A stretch of 64,000 bases of DNA, taken from contig JANQLC010000008.1 of the NCBI GenBank assembly GCA_028280815.1, positions 8,492 through 72,491 on the forward strand, in the 5' to 3' direction. This stretch comes from Flavobacteriales bacterium (GTDB taxonomy: Bacteria; Bacteroidota; Bacteroidia; Flavobacteriales; JANQLC01). The stretch's first letter is position 1, and the number at the start of each line of letters is the position of its first letter. The translations under genes and the position numbers were made by a program. Under the pieces are notes generated by a model. That model was not told where the DNA came from and searched no databases. It saw only the letters and a program-made list of their open reading frames with translations. Positions 4,483-30,420 of this stretch are shown here, piece after piece.

Positions 4483-5067
4483 TCAGTCGCGTGAAGGGCA
4501 CCCACGAAATCCCGTACAATCCAAAACACCTGCATACAAACGGTAAAAAACCCAAGCGGACAGCAGGCCGAAAAGCCCGCCGCACAAAATGTCGAGGGGA
4601 AAATGGACGCCGAGGTAAACCCGGCTATAGGCCACGACACCCGCCCAGAGCCACATCGCATAAACCCATTTTGAAGTGCGCCTCAAGACCCACATCATAA
4701 AACCCGCCAATCCAAAAGCGTTTCCCGCATGCCCGCTGGTAAAGCCGTAGGGGCCACCGCAATGGGTCGCAACCAAGCGCACAACACCTGACAACTGCGG
4801 GTCATAACAGGGGCGCAGCCGCTGTAAGCCAATCTTAATCAAACCGGTAACCTGATCTGTAAAGCCGAAGAGCAACAGGGCAAACAAAAGGGCTAAGCCC
4901 CCCTGCCGCCAGCCCAATTTCCACAGCAGCAAAAGGGCGAGCAACCCGTACAAGGGAATCCAAGAACGCTCAGCGGTGGCGAAAAGCCAAAAGCCATCCC
5001 ACTGGGCATTGCCCAGGTGGTTCAAGTGTAAAAACAGGCGCTTGTCGAGCTGAATGAGTTTTTCCAC
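4483..5067 (-). CDS. PAP2-family phosphatase (membrane)
   Basis: 194 aa with the three PAP2 motifs KIGLQRLRP, TSGH and SRVYLGVHFPLD. Confidence 0.85.
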   Translation of the reverse strand: MEKLIQLDKRLFLHLNHLGNAQWDGFWLFATAERSWIPLYGLLALLLLWKLGWRQGGLALLFALLLFGFTDQVTGLIKIGLQRLRPCYDPQLSGVVRLVATHCGGPYGFTSGHAGNAFGLAGFMMWVLRRTSKWVYAMWLWAGVVAYSRVYLGVHFPLDILCGGLFGLLSAWVFYRLYAGVLDCTGFRGCPSRD

Positions 5068-8589: not shown

Positions 8590-8975
8590 CGCATGGGACA
8601 AACCACCCCCTAGTGAAAGCAGGAATTAAACCCACCGACCGACCCAATCCGCCAAGCCAGTCCAAGCAAGCCAACCCATTCAAGCCACAACCGCAAAGCC
8701 ACCCTTTCAAGCCGACTCACCTAAGCAAGCCAATCCAAGTCCTAGGTCGATCAAATCAGGACAGCCCAAGCCGCCAAGCCAAGCAAAACAAGCCAAATCC
8801 GTTAGTCCAATCCAAACCGCTCAGGCAACCCAATCAAGAGAATTAAAACTACCGAGCCAAGTAAACCAAGTCAACCTATCAAATCCACCGACCGACCCAA
8901 TCCGTCAACCAACCTACGATATACACCAAATCGCCACCCACCGGCCAACCGATTCCGACAAATCGAACCGCGGAT
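8590..8975. repeat. strand-asymmetric intergenic island 1 (A+C-rich on + strand)
   Basis: My count of 8641-8700 is A21 C26 G9 T4. Contains a 20-bp direct repeat (8632-8651 / 8885-8904) and words shared with islands 2 and 3. Confidence 0.7.
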
Positions 8976-22328: not shown

Positions 22329-22628
22329 CTAATGGGTTTTTGTCTTTTCCTTACACCTGGAAATCTGACGCTTTAAGGTATCGAGTGAGCGGTCTGTTCC
22401 CTCCTCAAAAGTACGACAAATCTTTTTGACTACGATCTCTTCTCTGGGGATCGATAGCTTGGTCTCCACCATTTTATTTCGCTTATCGGGCGTGTTTTTT
22501 ACCTTTAAATAGACTTCAATCGCTATAATTCTATCGCAATAATTCTCGAGCTTGGCATACTTTTTCTCCACGAAGTCGCAGAGCTCGGCTCCTGCGTGAA
22601 AGTTAACGGCTTGTACGCATACGTTCAT
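22329..22628 (-). CDS. hpf: ribosome hibernation promoting factor / RaiA family
   Basis: MNVCVQAVNFHAGAELCDFVEKKYAKLENY is a typical short HPF N-terminus. ATG 22628 is chosen over the track start. Confidence 0.85.
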   Translation of the reverse strand: MNVCVQAVNFHAGAELCDFVEKKYAKLENYCDRIIAIEVYLKVKNTPDKRNKMVETKLSIPREEIVVKKICRTFEEGTDRSLDTLKRQISRCKEKTKTH

Positions 22629-23526
22629 GGCATTTCGATTTTGAGCCACGGGGATGGGCTCGGTTATACATACGTTTCAGATTTTCAATATCGTTTTGCA
22701 GGTAAATTTGTGTGGCTGCCAGTCCCGCATGCCCTAGCAGCTCCTTAATCGAATGCAAGTCCGCCCCCCTTTGAAGCAGGTGGGTGGCAAAGGTGTGGCG
22801 CAACACATGGGGACTTTTCTCGGCTTTTGTCGTCACATGGCTGAGCTGTGAATTCACCAGGCGATAGACGAGTTTGGGGTACAGCGGATTCCCCTTCTCA
22901 GTTAAAAAAAAGGAATCTGCAGTTTCATCTTTCAAATGATCCCGCTCGCATCGGTATCGCATTAAAACACTTTTTAAATGGGTGGTGGTCGGGATCTTGC
23001 GCGCTTTGTTGCGCTTCCCCCATACCAAAAAGAAGCCATCAGCGCCGAGGTCTACATCCTTCAACTGTAAGCCGATGAGCTCAGCCAAGCGCATACCGGT
23101 TTGATAGAAGGTTTCAATAATGGCTCGATTTCGAATGCGCGCAAAGCGCGAGAGATGCTGAAAAAAAACACCGCTTACCGCTTTGTCCATCTCTTCTTCT
23201 GAATAGACGGTATGTATTTTCCTATGCGCTTTGAGCTTGGCAATTCCCAGCGCTGGATTTTCATCGATGGCTTTGACCTCGACGAGAAACCGATAGAAAC
23301 TCTTTAGACTGCTGAGCTTCCGATTGATGCTGTTGTTGTCCAATTTGCGGCTTGCCAAGGACGCAATCCAAGCCCGAATAATGGGTGCATTTACACCTTG
23401 TACGGGGATTCGTCGCTCGTCTAAGTAGCCTTTAAATCCTTCCAAATCGCTCCGGTAAGCACGGACGGTATGCGAAGTGTAACGCCTGGCATACCGAAGG
23501 TGTTCGATGAATTTTTGGATGGGCAT
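22603..23526 (-). CDS. tyrosine-type site-specific recombinase (XerC/XerD family)
   Basis: 307 aa with an N-terminal SAM-like core-binding domain and a C-terminal catalytic region (HVLRHTFATHLL ... LGHAGLAATQIY). Confidence 0.88.
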   Translation of the reverse strand: MPIQKFIEHLRYARRYTSHTVRAYRSDLEGFKGYLDERRIPVQGVNAPIIRAWIASLASRKLDNNSINRKLSSLKSFYRFLVEVKAIDENPALGIAKLKAHRKIHTVYSEEEMDKAVSGVFFQHLSRFARIRNRAIIETFYQTGMRLAELIGLQLKDVDLGADGFFLVWGKRNKARKIPTTTHLKSVLMRYRCERDHLKDETADSFFLTEKGNPLYPKLVYRLVNSQLSHVTTKAEKSPHVLRHTFATHLLQRGADLHSIKELLGHAGLAATQIYLQNDIENLKRMYNRAHPRGSKSKCHERMRTSR

Positions 23527-23556
23527 ACGCTGTAGGAACAGGAGGTAAATTTAATT

Positions 23557-23580
23557 CAATTCGCGGAAAAAAGCGAATTG
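23557..23580. promoter_or_regulatory. perfect 8-bp inverted repeat CAATTCGC-N8-GCGAATTG upstream of the recombinase gene
   Basis: Seen directly in the sequence, 31 nt upstream of ATG 23526. Could be an operator or a stem-loop. Confidence 0.35.
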
Positions 23581-23639
23581 ACAGGCACAGCTTTTCCTGC
23601 ATTTCTCAATTTTTTATCGCGTGGCCCAGGGTTGACCCG

Positions 23640-24470
23640 TCAGGCGTGGTCGTTCCAGTTCGATTGGGCCACATATACGGGATCGGGTTGGATACTTTGG
23701 GGGTGGATGGCTTGGGTTGCTGTGCTATTGCGTTGATTGCGTGGGTTGGGTTGTTTGATGTGCTTTGATAAGCATGACTCTTGCTGTTTTGGATGCTTGA
23801 GCGGATTGCTCGGTCTCTCTTGGTTTTGTCGCATGGGTTTGGTTGGCTCGTTGGGCGTGGTTGTTGCGGTTCGATTGGGCTACGTATCTGTGATTGGGTT
23901 GGTGCGTTGTTGTAATTCGGCCGGGCCGGGTTGGTTGCTTGGGTTGCGTTGGCGTTGCTTGCGTTGGCTGGATTGGATTGGGTTGTTTCATTGTCGGGTC
24001 GCTTTGCGTTGGCGGTTTTCTGTTGCGCTGTTTTGTCGTTGGGCGGATTGGGCTGGCTTGAGCGAAGTCGGGTCGATTGCTCGGGTTGTGTTGCAGTTGG
24101 ATGGGTGGATTGGGATTGTCTGTATTATTCGGTTTGGCGCGACTGCTCCGTCGGTGTGATTCGCAGACTCGGATGGGCGGGTGTTTTGTCGAGTTGTTTC
24201 GTCGCTGCTCAGGTGCGTTGTTGTGTTTTGCTATCGGTTGCGTTTGTGGGCTGTCGCATCCTTGGGTTGAATGGGTTGGTCAGCTTTGCGCTAGCCTGAG
24301 TTGCTTGGATGAGTTGGCTTGAAACGGTGGCTTTGCGGTTGTGACTTAGATGGATTGGTTTGAGTGGGTCGAATTGGCTGGGTTGGATCAGATGGATGAG
24401 CTGGGTTGGATGAGCTGGCTTGAAACGGTGGCTCAGGGCTTTCGGGTTATCGCTTTCGGAATGGGATCGG
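23640..24470. repeat. strand-asymmetric intergenic island 2 (G+T-rich on + strand)
   Basis: My count of 23941-24000 is G25 T24 C8 A3. It fills almost the whole 945-bp gap between the recombinase start and the uvrB stop. Confidence 0.75.
23670..24120 (+). repeat. inverted-repeat arm A (partner 29395..29865)
   Basis: My alignment to the reverse complement of 29395-29865 is colinear with a few indels, and roughly 85-90% identical by eye. Confidence 0.8.
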
Positions 24471-24471
24471 A

Positions 24472-26466
24472 TCAGGTTTTTGCCTTCCAGTATTGCCAGG
24501 CATCGCGCAGGCGGGCGGCTTGGACAAAATCTAGGGCTTTGGCCGCCTGTTCCATGGCTTTTCGGGTTTCGCGCACCTTTTTCTCTATATCTCCTTTGCT
24601 CAGGTAAGCGACATCGAGCTCGTCAGCCGCTTGGTCTCCGCCTGGGGTCGGACAACTGTCCTCCAAGGCTTTCTCAGGGCTTAAACCCACGTCTATCGCT
24701 TTGTGCAGCGGTTGGGGTGTGATGCCGTTCTCCCGGTTGTATGCGATTTGTCTCTCACGCCTGCGCTCGGTTTCTTCCACGGTTCTCCGCATGCTTTCCG
24801 TGGTTTTATCCGCATACATGATGACCCGACCGCTTACATTTCTCGCAGCGCGACCGGCGGTTTGCGTAAGGGCGCGATGGGAGCGCAAAAAACCTTCTTT
24901 GTCCGCATCGAGAATGGCGACCAATGACACCTCGGGCAGGTCTAAGCCTTCGCGGAGTAAATTAATCCCTACCAATACGTCAAAAACGCCTTTTCGCAAC
25001 GCCCGCATGATCGCCACGCGTTCCAATGTGTCGATATCGGAGTGGATGTAGCGCGAGCGAATGCGCATGCGATTCAAGTACTGGGTCAGCTCTTCCGCCA
25101 TCCGCTTGGTCAAGGTGGTGACGAGTACGCGTTCATTCCGCTCTGCGCGCCTTTGAATTTCCGCCATCAAGTCGTCGATCTGATTTTGACTGGGACGCAC
25201 ATCGATTTTGGGGTCGAGCAAGCCGGTGGGGCGAATCAGCTGTTCCACTAGCACCCCTTCGCTCTGCTGCAACTCGTAATCCGCGGGGGTGGCACTGACA
25301 AACAGCACCTGATTTTGCAGGGCTTCAAACTCCTCGAATCGCAACGGGCGGTTGTCCAAAGCGGCGGGCAGGCGAAAGCCGTATTCGACCAAGGTCTCCT
25401 TTCGGCTGCGATCGCCGCCATGCATGGCGTGTACTTGCGGTACGGTTACGTGACTCTCATCCACCACCATCAGGTAATCCGCGGGGAAGTAATCCAAGAG
25501 GCAAAAGGGGCGCATATGGGGTGCTCGCCCATCGAGGTATCGCGAATAATTTTCAATGCCGGCACAATAGCCGAGTTCCTTCATCATTTCCAGATCGAAT
25601 CGCGTCCGTTCTTCCAACCGCTTGGCCTCCAGATTTTTTCCCATATCCCTGAGGTATGCAACCCGATCGACCAGGTCGTGCTGAATCTGCTCCACAGCCG
25701 TTTTCAGGCGTTCGGGAGAAGTGACAAAGAGGTTGGCTGGATAGAGGTTGATCCGGTCATAGCGCTCTAAAACGGAATTGCGCTGCGGGTCAAAGGCCTC
25801 GATGGCTTCGATTTCCAAATCCCAGAAATGGACGCGAATAGCCACATCGGAATAAGCTGGAAAAATATCCACCGTATCTCCCCGCACGCGAAAGTTCCCC
25901 CGGCCGAAATCGGCTTCTGTCCGCGCGTATAAGCTCGATACCAATTGCAGTAAAAACCGGTTTCGCGGTAGGGTGTCCCCGCAGGCGATGGAGATGACAC
26001 TCTTGTGAAACTCGGTGGGATTGCCGATACCGTACAGGCAGGACACGGAGGCGACTACCAAAACATCACGCCTGCCGCTGAGCAGCGAAGAAGTGGTGCT
26101 CAGGCGCAGCTTTTCGATCTCTTCGTCGATGGACAAGTCTTTTTCAATATAGGTGTTCGTCACGGGGATGAAAGCCTCGGGTTGGTAATAATCGTAATAG
26201 GAGACGAAGTACTCTACGGCATTATCGGGGAAAAACTGCTTGAACTCGCCGTAGAGTTGTGCGGCCAAGGTCTTGTTGTGCGCCAATACGAGGGTAGGCC
26301 GTTGCAATTCTCGCACCACATTGGCTACGGTAAAAGTCTTGCCGGAGCCGGTTACGCCCAACAGGGTTTGAAATTTAACACCTTGTCTGAACCCTTCGGT
26401 GAGCTGCGCGATGGCTTGGGGTTGGTCGCCGGTGGGCTGAAAGTCCGAAACGAGCTCGAAATCCAT
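24472..26466 (-). CDS. uvrB: excinuclease ABC subunit B
   Basis: [28 protein letters not shown] Walker A, and C-terminal UVR motif (AARLRDAWQ). ATG 26466 is chosen. Confidence 0.96.
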
Positions 26467-26713
26467 TCGGCAAAAATACGAAGTATAGACCTCTCCCATA
26501 CCCAAGCAGTTCAAACACACAGCGGGCAAAAAAGCTTCAAATCGGTTAAAAATTCCCAATGGAAATTGCGAAAGACCTCATTTCGACATATCTTTATGCC
26601 ATGTAGAAAACAGAAGATGAGACGACCTATGCGCGAGGCAACCCCTAAGGCCAACAAGCCTAAAGCCCTGTTGGATACCCATGGCAGGCTGTGCAGCAAA
26701 TGATAAACACGAC

Positions 26714-27443
26714 ATGGAGGCTTATGCTAAACTAAGAGAGGGTGCTGACTTCTATCTGAGTGAATCATTTTATCATATCAATGAATCGCTACTTGATGAA
26801 TCAGCCGGTATCCTCTTTTCAAAATATCTCCAAGAGATTGATCCGACCGATGTTGATCGAAAAATAGCCGAGAGCGCAAGTATTCCCAAAAGCACTATAG
26901 AATTACTGCGATTCAACTGTAATGAAGTACTCAGTGAAGAGACGACGAGAAAAATGTCTGATGCGTGGCGCAAAGCGCAAATGATATCGCGATTTAAAAA
27001 CTACGGTTCCGGGCTTAACCATATTATAAACTCAATTCACATCCTCGGACATCTCAATAACTTTGGTTTTTTCATTGAAACTATAATCAATCGACATCTG
27101 ATGCTCTTACAAGACTCCAAATCTATAGACGGTTTGAGCTACTCGAGAATAGCTATTGCAAAAATATGTGGAGAAACTGGTCTTTATTTTCAAAGATGAT
27201 TTGAGTTCAAATACAATTCACCTCGACAAAATCACAAACTTATTCAGTTTGAGAAATAAGACCGTCCATTATACACCTCACAATGCAATTAGGCTTAAAC
27301 CGAAAATATCGGAATTATTGCAAATTTGGAAACAAGCGATAGCATTACTCAAAAGACTTGAGGCCATTGAAATGTTTGATGAAGATAAGTTCTCAAAGAG
27401 ATTAGACGAACGCGTAAAAGCCTTTACGCATAAATGGATGTAA
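26714..27443 (+). pseudogene. HEPN-like (Rx4H) protein gene, frameshifted at an A5 run
   Basis: Two overlapping ORFs (26681..27199 and 27156..27443) join if one A is added at 27160-27164 (..SRIAIAKKYVEKLVFIFKDD..). The second part carries LRNKTVHY, an RNxxxH motif. The region is low in GC. Confidence 0.55.
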
Positions 27444-28736: not shown

Positions 28737-28789
28737 GGGGTTTTGAAAGCGCTCCATGGGGACAAACGCCAAAAAACGAGCCGCCTTTC

Positions 28790-30420
28790 AAGTCATCCCC
28801 AAGCGGCAAAGCAAAAAGCACACCGCTTTTCAAACCACTCCGCAGAGATAAATACCCAAAAGACAAGTCCCCATTTTCAAATTGACTTACAGAGACAGAC
28901 GCCAAAACAACCGGTTTCAGTCTTCAAACCCATACGAGGGGCAAAGACAAAAACAGCGCTCCTTTTCCAGTCAACACAAAAGAGCCAAACCGAAAAAACA
29001 AGCCAGCCCAGCCAACCCATGCAAGCCAATTCGCCCAGGCAACAACGCAACAGTGCAAACGACCCAATTAACGCAATCACGCATGCGTGACAAACAACCC
29101 GCCAACGCAATCAAACCAACCCAGTACACCGTATGGTAAAAAAGACCCACCCAAAAAACCCGACGAAAGACAAGGGACGAAAAACAACACAGCCCAACCG
29201 AGCAGTCGCAACAACCCACTGAACCACGCAGCGAGAGAAACCAGGTCTTTCTAAATGCCAGATAGAAACGCAAAAACAGTTCCGAGCGCGCAAAGGCTCT
29301 GAAAAGAGCTAAACCCATCCAAGCCAAGTCAACCCAAATCAAATGATGCAAACAAGCCTAATCCACCCAACCTACGCAAAGCGACCCAATCACCCGCACG
29401 ACAACCCAATCAAGCCATCCAATTGCAACCCAATCCGACTCCACTGAACAGTCCAATCCGCCCAACGACAAAACAGCGCAACAGCAAACCGCCAACGCAA
29501 AGCGACCCGACAATGAAACAACCCAATCTAAGCCAGCCAACGCAAGCAACGCAAAGCGAACCAAGCAGTTAAGCAACGCCAATGCAACCCAAGCAACCAA
29601 CCCGGCCTAGCCAAATTACAACAACGCACCAACCCAAAACCACCAACCCAATCACAGATACCTAGCCCAATCCAACCGCAACGACCACGACCAACCAGCC
29701 AACCAAAACCATGCGACAAAACCATAGAGAGACCGAGCAATCCGATCAAGCATCCAAAACAGCAAGAGTCTTGCTTATCAAAGCACATCGAACAACCCAA
29801 CCCACGCAAGCAACGCAATAGCACAGCAACCCAATCCAAGCCACTCAATCCAAATCCCGCATATAACAACTGTAGAAAAGACGAATGCAAAAAGCCGATG
29901 AAGGACAAGGGACAAAGACAACCCAACCTACCCCACCGACACGGCCAAGCCAGCCCTGGACTCGCCCAAGCCAATCAGCGGAAAAACAAACGCAAAAAAC
30001 TCGCCCGAACCGATCACGGGAAGGGCGAACGAGAAAAAACCCAACATGCGAAATCCCAAATGCACCCGTGCACAAACGAGAGCGGAATGACAACTTTCAA
30101 TTGACACCCATACACGCCAAACATAAAAACCCCACCCAGTGGACCCGACGAGGAAGAGCCCAATCAACACGACAACCCACGCAACGATAAAACAAACCCT
30201 TTTTCAAACTACTATGGCACAGGGATAAAAGAGCCGTCTTGACCGCTCCAAACCGCCACAAAAGGACAAGCGCAAAAAACCGGCCTTTCAAGCGCGGACG
30301 CGAATCGAGAAATAAGGAAGTGGAAAAACCTAGAGCGCGCAGCCATTCCACAAAGGATAAAGGCAAACGAATCCCCAACCGGGATAGTCGAGAATCCGCA
30401 TCTCCGCAAAAGCGGCTAAA
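28790..30420. repeat. strand-asymmetric intergenic island 3 (A+C-rich, T-poor on + strand)
   Basis: My count of 29401-29460 is A21 C24 T9 G6. It occupies most of a 1.77-kb gene-free gap between ychF and the transketolase genes. Confidence 0.75.
29395..29865 (-). repeat. inverted-repeat arm B (partner 23670..24120)
   Basis: See arm A. The ORF-track artefact peptides share MVAWVALALL..LAGLDWVVSLSGRFALAV.CCAVLSLGGL between 23931..24299(+) and 29358..29600(-). Confidence 0.8.

Follow-up and report, generated by a model that had tools for sequence, protein, structure and literature searches.

Among the described repeats closest to the arrays reported here, REP and BIME elements are abundant, non-coding and intergenic, lie mostly at gene ends, and are clustered and lineage-specific; a REP is an imperfect palindrome of 20-40 nt, and genomes that carry REPs have a RAYT (Y1 HUH) gene. 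In the Bacteroidota, the BrickBuilt MITE of Porphyromonas gingivalis forms intergenic arrays with dispersed copies and internal tandem units (PMC4596501); MITEs are bounded by terminal inverted repeats, and their ends are fixed. The G-rich heptamer SSRs of Xanthomonas (GGGAATC) and Nostoc (GGGGAYT) are perfect, quadruplex-capable 7-nt units at conserved sites, intergenic and near gene ends, with one strand G-rich, and those of Xanthomonas show no preference for the leading or the lagging strand (PMC4692102). Insertion sequences, on the other hand, tend to be oriented according to the direction in which the replication fork moves (Gomez et al. 2014, PMC3971601). Outside bacteria, vertebrate mitochondrial DNA has a GT-rich H strand and an AC-rich L strand, an asymmetry attributed to a strand-biased mutation spectrum (PMC1794132).

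Here we analyse a window of 64,000 nucleotides from an uncultured marine member of the Flavobacteriales, in which a strongly G+T-rich stretch, island 2, separates uvrB from a recombinase gene. We find that island 2 is a reversed member of an undescribed repeat family, no description of such arrays having been found in the literature searched by full text. The first-pass annotation, which took it for an inverted copy of part of a second island (island 3), was right in substance and too specific on the donor.

Composition and setting of island 2

A gap of 945 bp, from the start of a tyrosine-recombinase gene (23526) to the uvrB stop codon (24472), contains island 2 (Table 1). The gap had been described earlier as almost wholly G+T-rich on the + strand, and the counts agree: 23640-24470 holds G320 T301 C126 A84, that is 74.7% G+T, the proportion is 75.6% across 23700-24470, and the 60 bases at 23941-24000 are exactly the G25 T24 C8 A3 first counted. 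The first 113 bp of the gap (23527-23639) are without skew, at 51% G+T. The mean over 800-bp windows of the genome is 49.6% G+T (sd 5.3%), with just 0.08% of windows at 75% or above, so the skew of island 2 is not a product of chance. The other skewed stretches of the window, at 8.4-9.0 kb, 28.8-30.3 kb (island 3) and 50.1-50.7 kb, have the A+C-rich strand on +; an A+C signal at 4.5-5.1 kb is partly that of a PAP2 membrane-protein gene on the minus strand, and there is no island there.

Both genes that flank island 2 are on the minus strand, as the first-pass annotation had stated for all neighbouring genes, but at island 3 the statement fails, the transketolase gene to its right being on the + strand. 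The recombinase is a housekeeping neighbour and shows no sign of a tie to the array. Its gene is followed by that of a ribosome-hibernation factor. An exact-protein look-up of the recombinase returned only short contigs, of about 1.6 kb, among the matches listed, and an exact-protein look-up of UvrB for other strains returned nothing.

A degenerate, non-coding mosaic

Island 2 is array-like but degenerate. Tandem Repeats Finder recovers the 9-nt tract alone as tandem structure, and the other direct repeats are spaced 45, 101 and 211 bp apart with 70-96% identity. The 211-bp spacing is that of a 62-nt repeat shared by the older module on the recombinase side and 23814-23902; when this module is extended left to 23604, it scores 40.5, against a mean of 22.3 and a maximum of 30.5 in shuffles. 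The conserved region upstream of the recombinase contains a hairpin, TCAATTCGC-N8-GCGAATTGA, at 23556-23581. A search of 23527-24475 for inverted-repeat pairs, terminal and subterminal ones included, found none; no sigma-70-like promoter was found in island 2, and terminator-like hairpins are not in excess. G-quadruplex motifs are not enriched either, with zero built on G3 runs and five on G2 runs, compared with 3.7 +/- 1.6 in shuffles.

The longest open reading frames of island 2 measure 140 aa on the + strand and 88 aa on the minus strand, lengths expected by chance for this base composition, and have no Pfam match. In Rfam, island 2 has no match at gathering score, and at E up to 1 the only one is a 15-bit chance match outside the island. 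Because, in addition, paralogous copies differ by indels of 1, 14 and 27 nt, frame-shifting ones among them, we conclude that island 2 is non-coding.

Table 1. Features of island 2, its flanking genes and its partner block in the window.
Feature	Coordinates	Strand	Remarks
XerC/D-like tyrosine recombinase gene, left flank of island 2	22603..23526	-	Pfam Phage_integrase
Unskewed recombinase-upstream region, outside the array	23527..23603	-	Aligns with sister genome G001; 51% G+T
Older, less skewed family module	23604..23691		Direct repeat, ~79% identical, of 23814-23902 in the young block
Young block, inverted paralogue of island 3 (29400-29838)	23708..24120		Copies also in C14 and C2-end/C24
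9-nt tandem-unit tract (GGTTGCTTG, ~5.6 copies)	23933..23985		Tandem Repeats Finder
G+T-rich mosaic stretch, short matches only to other arrays	24121..24300		E.g. 24168-24220 83% identical to C12:71522-71574
Module common to the 8.4-9.0 kb island (8651-8728, 79-85%), inverted, and C24:2475-2531	24301..24378		
28-nt direct repeat (TTGGATGAGYTGGCTTGAAACGGTGGCT), two copies (24305, 24406), 96% identical, 101 bp apart	24305..24433		
G+T-rich unit (GGGTTATCGC...) adjoining the uvrB stop, likely ancestral seed	24440..24471		~71% to the sister's last GGGTTATYGCAGY unit
uvrB, right flank of island 2, stop codon abuts the island	24472..26559	-	Sister-genome ortholog 84-85% identical
Partner block in island 3, A+C-rich strand on +	29400..29838		Inverted match to the young block

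A young block shared with other arrays

Some 410 bp of island 2 form a block that recurs, with 94-97% identity and always in the opposite chromosomal orientation, in at least three other arrays. With island 3 it shares four collinear inverted arms (23708-24055 versus 29449-29838) that are 93-94% identical in ungapped blocks, and the gapped match pairs 23708-24120 with 29838-29400. Further copies lie at C14:26410-26803 and at C2:78426-78620, where the array continues into the start of C24, the two contigs overlapping by 61 identical bases (C-numbers denote contigs of the same assembly, G000, and island 2 is C2:32101-32970 in the genome scan). More diverged pieces of the block are present elsewhere in the genome. 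Across a 260-column core common to four copies, the C14 copy is closest to island 2, with 97.1% identity, and island 3 and the joined copy of C2-end/C24 follow with 94.2% each. Island 2 has only two private substitutions there; its 9-nt tract is 27 nt, or three units, shorter than the counterpart in island 3. The borders of homology change with the pair compared. The copy in C14 is circularly permuted, which implies a higher-order tandem unit to which the block belongs. When the core of the block and the uvrB end were used as exact patterns to scan public genome and metagenome contigs, nothing matched.

The block spans only about half of island 2. Both of its ends sit within older array sequence, and what remains of the island is pieced together from other family modules, older and of the same polarity. 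The inverted arms therefore bear out the first reading in that islands 2 and 3 belong to one sequence family in opposite orientations, and 23708-24120 is indeed an inverted paralogue of part of island 3, a description that does not cover the rest of island 2. Island 3 as the source is unsupported because the copy closest in the core is on another contig, and the same block occurs in other arrays as well.

A genome-wide family of skewed arrays

We defined islands as stretches of at least 250 bp with a G+T or A+C excess of at least 0.4 and no gene, and family membership by sequence similarity to other islands. The 77 islands found amount to 57.6 kb, or 3.6% of the 1.59-Mb, 42-contig assembly; 69 of them share sequence with another island, and in every one of the 2274 matches (2274/2274) the G+T strand is aligned to the G+T strand. 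Island 2, with 11 partner islands at E <1e-6, is a member of this family of G+T/A+C-skewed arrays that is the genome's own. The arrays are kilobase-sized and strand-asymmetric, fill the spacers in which they lie, and are found preferentially between gene 3' ends, islands being present in 18 of 194 convergent, 6 of 194 divergent and 28 of 807 co-directional spacers. Their commonest building words are TTGGATTG and TTGGGTTG.

A pattern of 40 G-or-T bases with at most 3 mismatches, run over 150 genomes of the order, also catches T-rich and Gly-codon tracts and so is no measure of the family; in five complete or near-complete relatives it has one or two loci each. We considered a KOPS- or Chi-type polar oligomer and rejected it: island core words like TGGGTTG are leading-strand-skewed outside islands (103 vs 45), as are G+T-rich words generally. 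A CRISPR repeat accounts for the most skewed 8-mers, and no specific motif emerged.

Array polarity and the direction of replication

Because bulk GC skew is confounded by gene strand (C exceeds G by ~0.14 at four-fold sites of the coding strand), our proxy for the replication strand was the G+T skew at four-fold sites in genes up to 20 kb from an island, with the two gene strands averaged. As a check of the sign convention, the proxy passes from minus to plus at dnaA; on contig C10 it passes from plus to minus, and there the islands pass from G+T to A+C on +. About 80% of internal islands agree with this proxy in polarity, the leading strand being the G+T-rich one: concordance is 29/35 for all internal islands with a decisive proxy (Fisher p 1.4e-4; contig-level permutation p 0.008 for sign and 0.0006 weighted), 19/24 for family members only (p 0.01) and 24/30 when genes within 3 kb of any island are omitted (p 0.002). 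Among islands at contig ends no replication bias was found. Only 53% of genes are on the leading strand. A rule of gene orientation was tried and rejected, since between co-directional genes the sense strand is the A+C-rich one 15 times and the G+T-rich one 13 times, and upstream genes reading into islands are likewise split, 38 vs 36. The tabulation of polarity suggested in the first-pass annotation thus shows no link to gene orientation and one to the replication-strand proxy. Unrelated copies of random polarity, which that annotation had named as telling against its reading, are not what the genome holds, given that 69 of 77 islands are related and some four in five follow the proxy.

In the window the leading strand is the minus strand, which carries rpoB/rpoC-sized genes and a tRNA cluster (proxy -0.04 to -0.06), so the G+T strand of island 2 is on the lagging strand. 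Island 2 is one of five or six clear exceptions to the concordance, and five family arrays are clearly reversed (island 2, C1:53691, C12:71151, C19:11801 and C30:15431). That reversed arrays should be shorter, as in a model of orientation-dependent growth, is not seen, their lengths being 280-2200 bp. In the sister genome described below 62-67% of islands are concordant, which is not significant (its contigs are short) and counts against our main reading; the replication rule is therefore that of a single genome.

History of the site in a sister genome

The sister genome G001 (106 contigs, 1.57 Mb), the only other genome of the genus, was compared whole. It contains 51 islands, which are smaller and make up 1.3% of its DNA. 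The adjacency of recombinase and uvrB is kept in it, with genes 84-85% identical, and the spacer between them, of about 250-300 bp, holds about a dozen copies of a different 13-nt unit (GGGTTATYGCAGY). The strand that is G+T-rich in island 2 is also the G+T-rich one there, at 67%, and the sister's array is flanked on both sides by a directly repeated stretch of ~50 nt from the 3' end of uvrB. The last unit, with ~35 bases beside the stop, aligns to 24440-24475 at ~71% identity, and on these 35 or so bases the unit beside the uvrB stop appears to be orthologous between the two species. A homologue of the block 23708-24120 was not found in G001. Because the sister has a G+T-rich array of the same polarity with this putatively orthologous unit at the stop, the polarity of the site probably predates the imported block; contrary to the earlier proposal, the reversed polarity was thus probably not created by an inverted copy.

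For about 22 islands the two flanks are found together on one contig of the sister, where most have as counterpart a short (9-360 bp), unskewed spacer, which implies that arrays turn over fast, faster indeed than the species diverge. At orthologous sister sites that do have an island, polarity is the same in five or six and opposite in one, and this one site means that site polarity is not always inherited, a point against our main reading.

How island 2 may have formed

We put at about even the chances that island 2 is a non-coding, satellite-like array of a lineage-specific family which exchanges blocks with other arrays, and for which no function need be assumed. The array would have grown in place from a small G+T-rich seed by the uvrB stop, and the block would later have been imported from another array by homology-dependent copying, whether ectopic gene conversion or inter-array template switching. 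Since such copying would pair only G+T-rich with A+C-rich strand, the copy would take the polarity of the site, here opposite to that of its donors. If replication affected unequally how arrays of the two polarities arise, grow or persist, G+T would come to lie on the leading strand in about four-fifths of them, and island 2 would be a tolerated exception to this bias. The differing borders and the permuted C14 copy fit recombination within arrays, and not an element with fixed ends.

Alternatively, the block could be a non-autonomous mobile element moved by a fork-coupled enzyme, from which the orientation bias of the family would follow, and inserted here in its rarer orientation; this we regard as unlikely. 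Copies 85-98% identical are spread over many contigs, their orientation is biased with respect to replication as for many IS families (PMC3971601), and some arrays have duplicated flanks. The array at C19:11801-12850, which is also reversed with respect to replication, measures 1056 bp where the sister has a spacer of 9 bp, and has a 13-nt direct repeat (TGGNTTAGTNRAA) on both sides; it looks like an insertion into an empty site, needs no seed, and stands against our main reading. Around island 3 some 45 nt of the ychF start region are duplicated (28746-28792 vs 30250-30292, 4.5 sd above shuffles), and C15:39161 is bracketed by a duplicated ~25 nt. Overall, flank duplication lies beyond the 95th percentile of controls in 7 of 43 arrays (Wilcoxon p 0.017). 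However, these duplications span anything from 13 to 50 nt and most arrays have none. They fit either local tandem-duplication growth or insertion with long staggered cuts and are too rare to define a mechanism; at island 2 a target-site duplication is unreadable, the sister species' site not being empty. Against mobility there are also the lack of terminal or subterminal inverted repeats in island 2, the pair-dependent borders with one permuted copy, and the embedding of the block in older array DNA and not in unique DNA. Moreover, a search for the Y1 transposase RAYT (Y1_Tnp, PF01797) found none in this genome, which is 92% complete, and did match control genomes.

A possible role in transcription

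The polarity could instead be functional. The minus-strand transcript, that of uvrB read-through, is 39% C and 15% G in island 2, and its predicted folding is -0.10 kcal/nt, compared with -0.29 for the G+U-rich strand and -0.30 for uvrB mRNA. Rho prefers RNA that is C-rich, G-poor and unstructured. By composition the predicted minus-strand RNA of island 2 is of the rut type, being C-rich, G-poor and weakly structured; a search beside the uvrB stop found no intrinsic terminator, and the rho gene is present in the genome. A Rho-loading role at island 2 is therefore possible, and the polarity kept at this site in the sister despite the turnover of its sequence is compatible with it. The fuller proposal, that uvrB read-through RNA loads Rho so that the transcript ends before the recombinase promoter, and that arrays are transcription stops working in one direction, we hold to be quite improbable: polarity is independent of the direction of neighbouring genes, most arrays are missing at orthologous sister sites and hence dispensable, and 830 bp far exceeds what a terminator needs.

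More speculative still, and a long shot in our estimate, is that the replication fork determines array polarity, or is itself affected by it, the arrays being one-way barriers to head-on or antisense transcription, or zones in which R-loops are only co-directional. If this were true, G+T on the leading strand would mean that only head-on transcription yields the A+C-rich, C-rich and unstructured RNA able to load Rho. The few reversed arrays, island 2 among them, would then serve as natural flipped controls, and the flip of island 2 would let the array terminate uvrB read-through.

Strand-biased mutation, assembly and coding

That the skew was made in place by replication- or transcription-linked mutation, without copying, is very improbable, being largely refuted by the shared block, which is 94-97% identical to sequence in other arrays. 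The usual direction of array skew, with G+T on the leading strand, is that of ordinary replication skew, but island 2 runs against replication, and the skew at four-fold sites of genes is at most ~0.15, versus 0.5 in islands. In a substitution test, private changes in one copy were polarised against at least two unanimous paralogues, and at 85% identity or more changes towards G+T were 2.0-fold more frequent per site than the reverse (42/1192 vs 70/3966 sites, p 6e-4). The excess is gone in the youngest copies (0.91-fold when identity is at least 90%) and when at least three paralogues are required (0.79-fold, from 22 events), its sign is alike in concordant and reversed arrays, and misalignment or saturation would mimic it, so that it may be an artefact. 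The test gave no sign of a drive of reversed arrays back to the usual polarity.

A reversed orientation caused by misassembly of repeats we consider extremely improbable. Arrays do break the assembly, 22 of its 84 contig ends falling within islands, and islands at contig ends are those without replication bias. However, 23640-23700 and 24120-24470, outside the block, have the same polarity and run into unique flanks, the sister has the same gene adjacency and polarity, and in an independent assembly of a public run the left junction, from the recombinase-upstream region into the island as far as 23741, is identical and of the same polarity. Finally, a decayed or unusual coding region, such as a low-complexity extension rich in P/T/Q/N and encoded by the A+C-rich strand, is scarcely credible, given that this strand is T-poor with stop codons fairly rare but has no open reading frame above 88 aa and no Pfam match, that copies differ by the indels given above, and that the sequence is absent from the sister species.

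Significance and comparison with described systems

Island 2, in the reading we prefer a satellite-like array that exchanges blocks with others, belongs to a family which fills at least 3.6% of a small (~1.6 Mb) marine Flavobacteriales genome with kilobase-sized non-coding arrays, unusual for a compact bacterial genome. Because so many contig ends fall within them, the arrays limit the assembly of genomes from metagenomes in this lineage. Reversed arrays such as island 2 show that the skew belongs to the array and not to its position, and that a block can pass from one array to another whatever their chromosomal orientations.

We found no described bacterial repeat family whose one-strand composition goes with the replication strand irrespective of gene orientation. 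The arrays share with REP/BIME their abundance, their clustering and their intergenic, lineage-specific occurrence at gene ends, but are of kilobase size with a G+T composition on one strand, and island 2 is without the inverted repeats that make a REP. Like the BrickBuilt arrays they are intergenic, with dispersed copies and internal tandem units, whereas neither island 2 nor its paralogues have terminal inverted repeats or fixed ends. Like the heptamer SSRs they are intergenic, near gene ends and G-rich on one strand, and unlike them they are degenerate, quadruplex-unenriched, fast-turning and leading-strand-biased. An orientation bias is common to the arrays and to insertion sequences, which however encode transposases and have defined ends, neither of which was found for the arrays. 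Lastly, the asymmetry of mitochondrial DNA is genome-wide and includes coding DNA (PMC1794132), while the asymmetry described here is confined to repeat arrays.

Array boundaries and orthologous sites

In the sister-species genome (G001), the spacer between uvrB and the recombinase gene, which in the window holds island 2 (23640-24470), carries about 12 units of GGGTTATYGCAGY flanked on both sides by near-identical copies, about 50 nt long, of the uvrB 3' end, and judging from this arrangement of the sequence the array looks to have arisen within a local tandem duplication. Island 3 (28.8-30.3 kb) is bracketed by a direct duplication, the far copy of which is degenerate and has a higher A+C content. 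The cleanest filled and empty pair among those found involves an array on contig C19 of the genome under study (G000), with a 13-nt direct repeat, TGGNTTAGTNRAA, on both flanks; in G001 the corresponding site is a 9-bp spacer with convergent genes on either side. At another orthologous spacer (G000 C24:2161-4420 and G001 C3:14254-15346) both species have an array, and its polarity is opposite between the two. Contig C24 also shares 61 identical bases, lying within an array, with contig C2 (C24:1-61 and C2:78560-78620), so that C24 continues C2 and their terminal islands are one array.

Coordinates of features at and around the arrays (window unless a contig is named)
Feature	Location	Strand	Description
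Direct duplication bracketing island 3	28746-28792 and 30250-30292		about 45 nt, ychF start region
Array in G001 uvrB-recombinase spacer	L002 2400-2660 (contig C103)		GGGTTATYGCAGY units
Array pointing against replication	G000 C19:11801-12850 (L022 2475-3530)		1056 bp; counterpart G001 C53:6252-6262
Hairpin	23556-23581	-	9-bp stem, TCAATTCGC-N8-GCGAATTGA; just upstream of recombinase start
PAP2-family membrane phosphatase gene	4483-5067	-	Pfam E 8e-23

Strand skew and neighbouring features

On G000 contig C10, the islands change from G+T-rich to A+C-rich on the + strand at about 20-30 kb, where the strand-balanced four-fold-site skew, our proxy for replication strand, also goes from plus to minus; this region is probably the replication terminus. 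Some skewed stretches of the window are not arrays, since the A+C-rich + strand signal at 4.5-5.1 kb is partly due to the G+T-rich coding strand of a real gene, the PAP2 phosphatase gene, which shows 78% conservation against G001.

The hairpin beside island 2 may serve to terminate transcripts that have crossed the island, or it may be a palindrome to which a protein binds. Between uvrB and ychF, the + strand holds two ORFs of 172 and 95 aa (26681-27443) in a segment of 35-40% GC; no Pfam match was found for either, and the pair looks like an inserted cassette. Outside the islands, the most strand-skewed 8-mers across G000 tile a single motif, GTCTTCCCCACGCATGTGGGGGTGTT, a CRISPR-type repeat that occurs about 50 times, on one strand.
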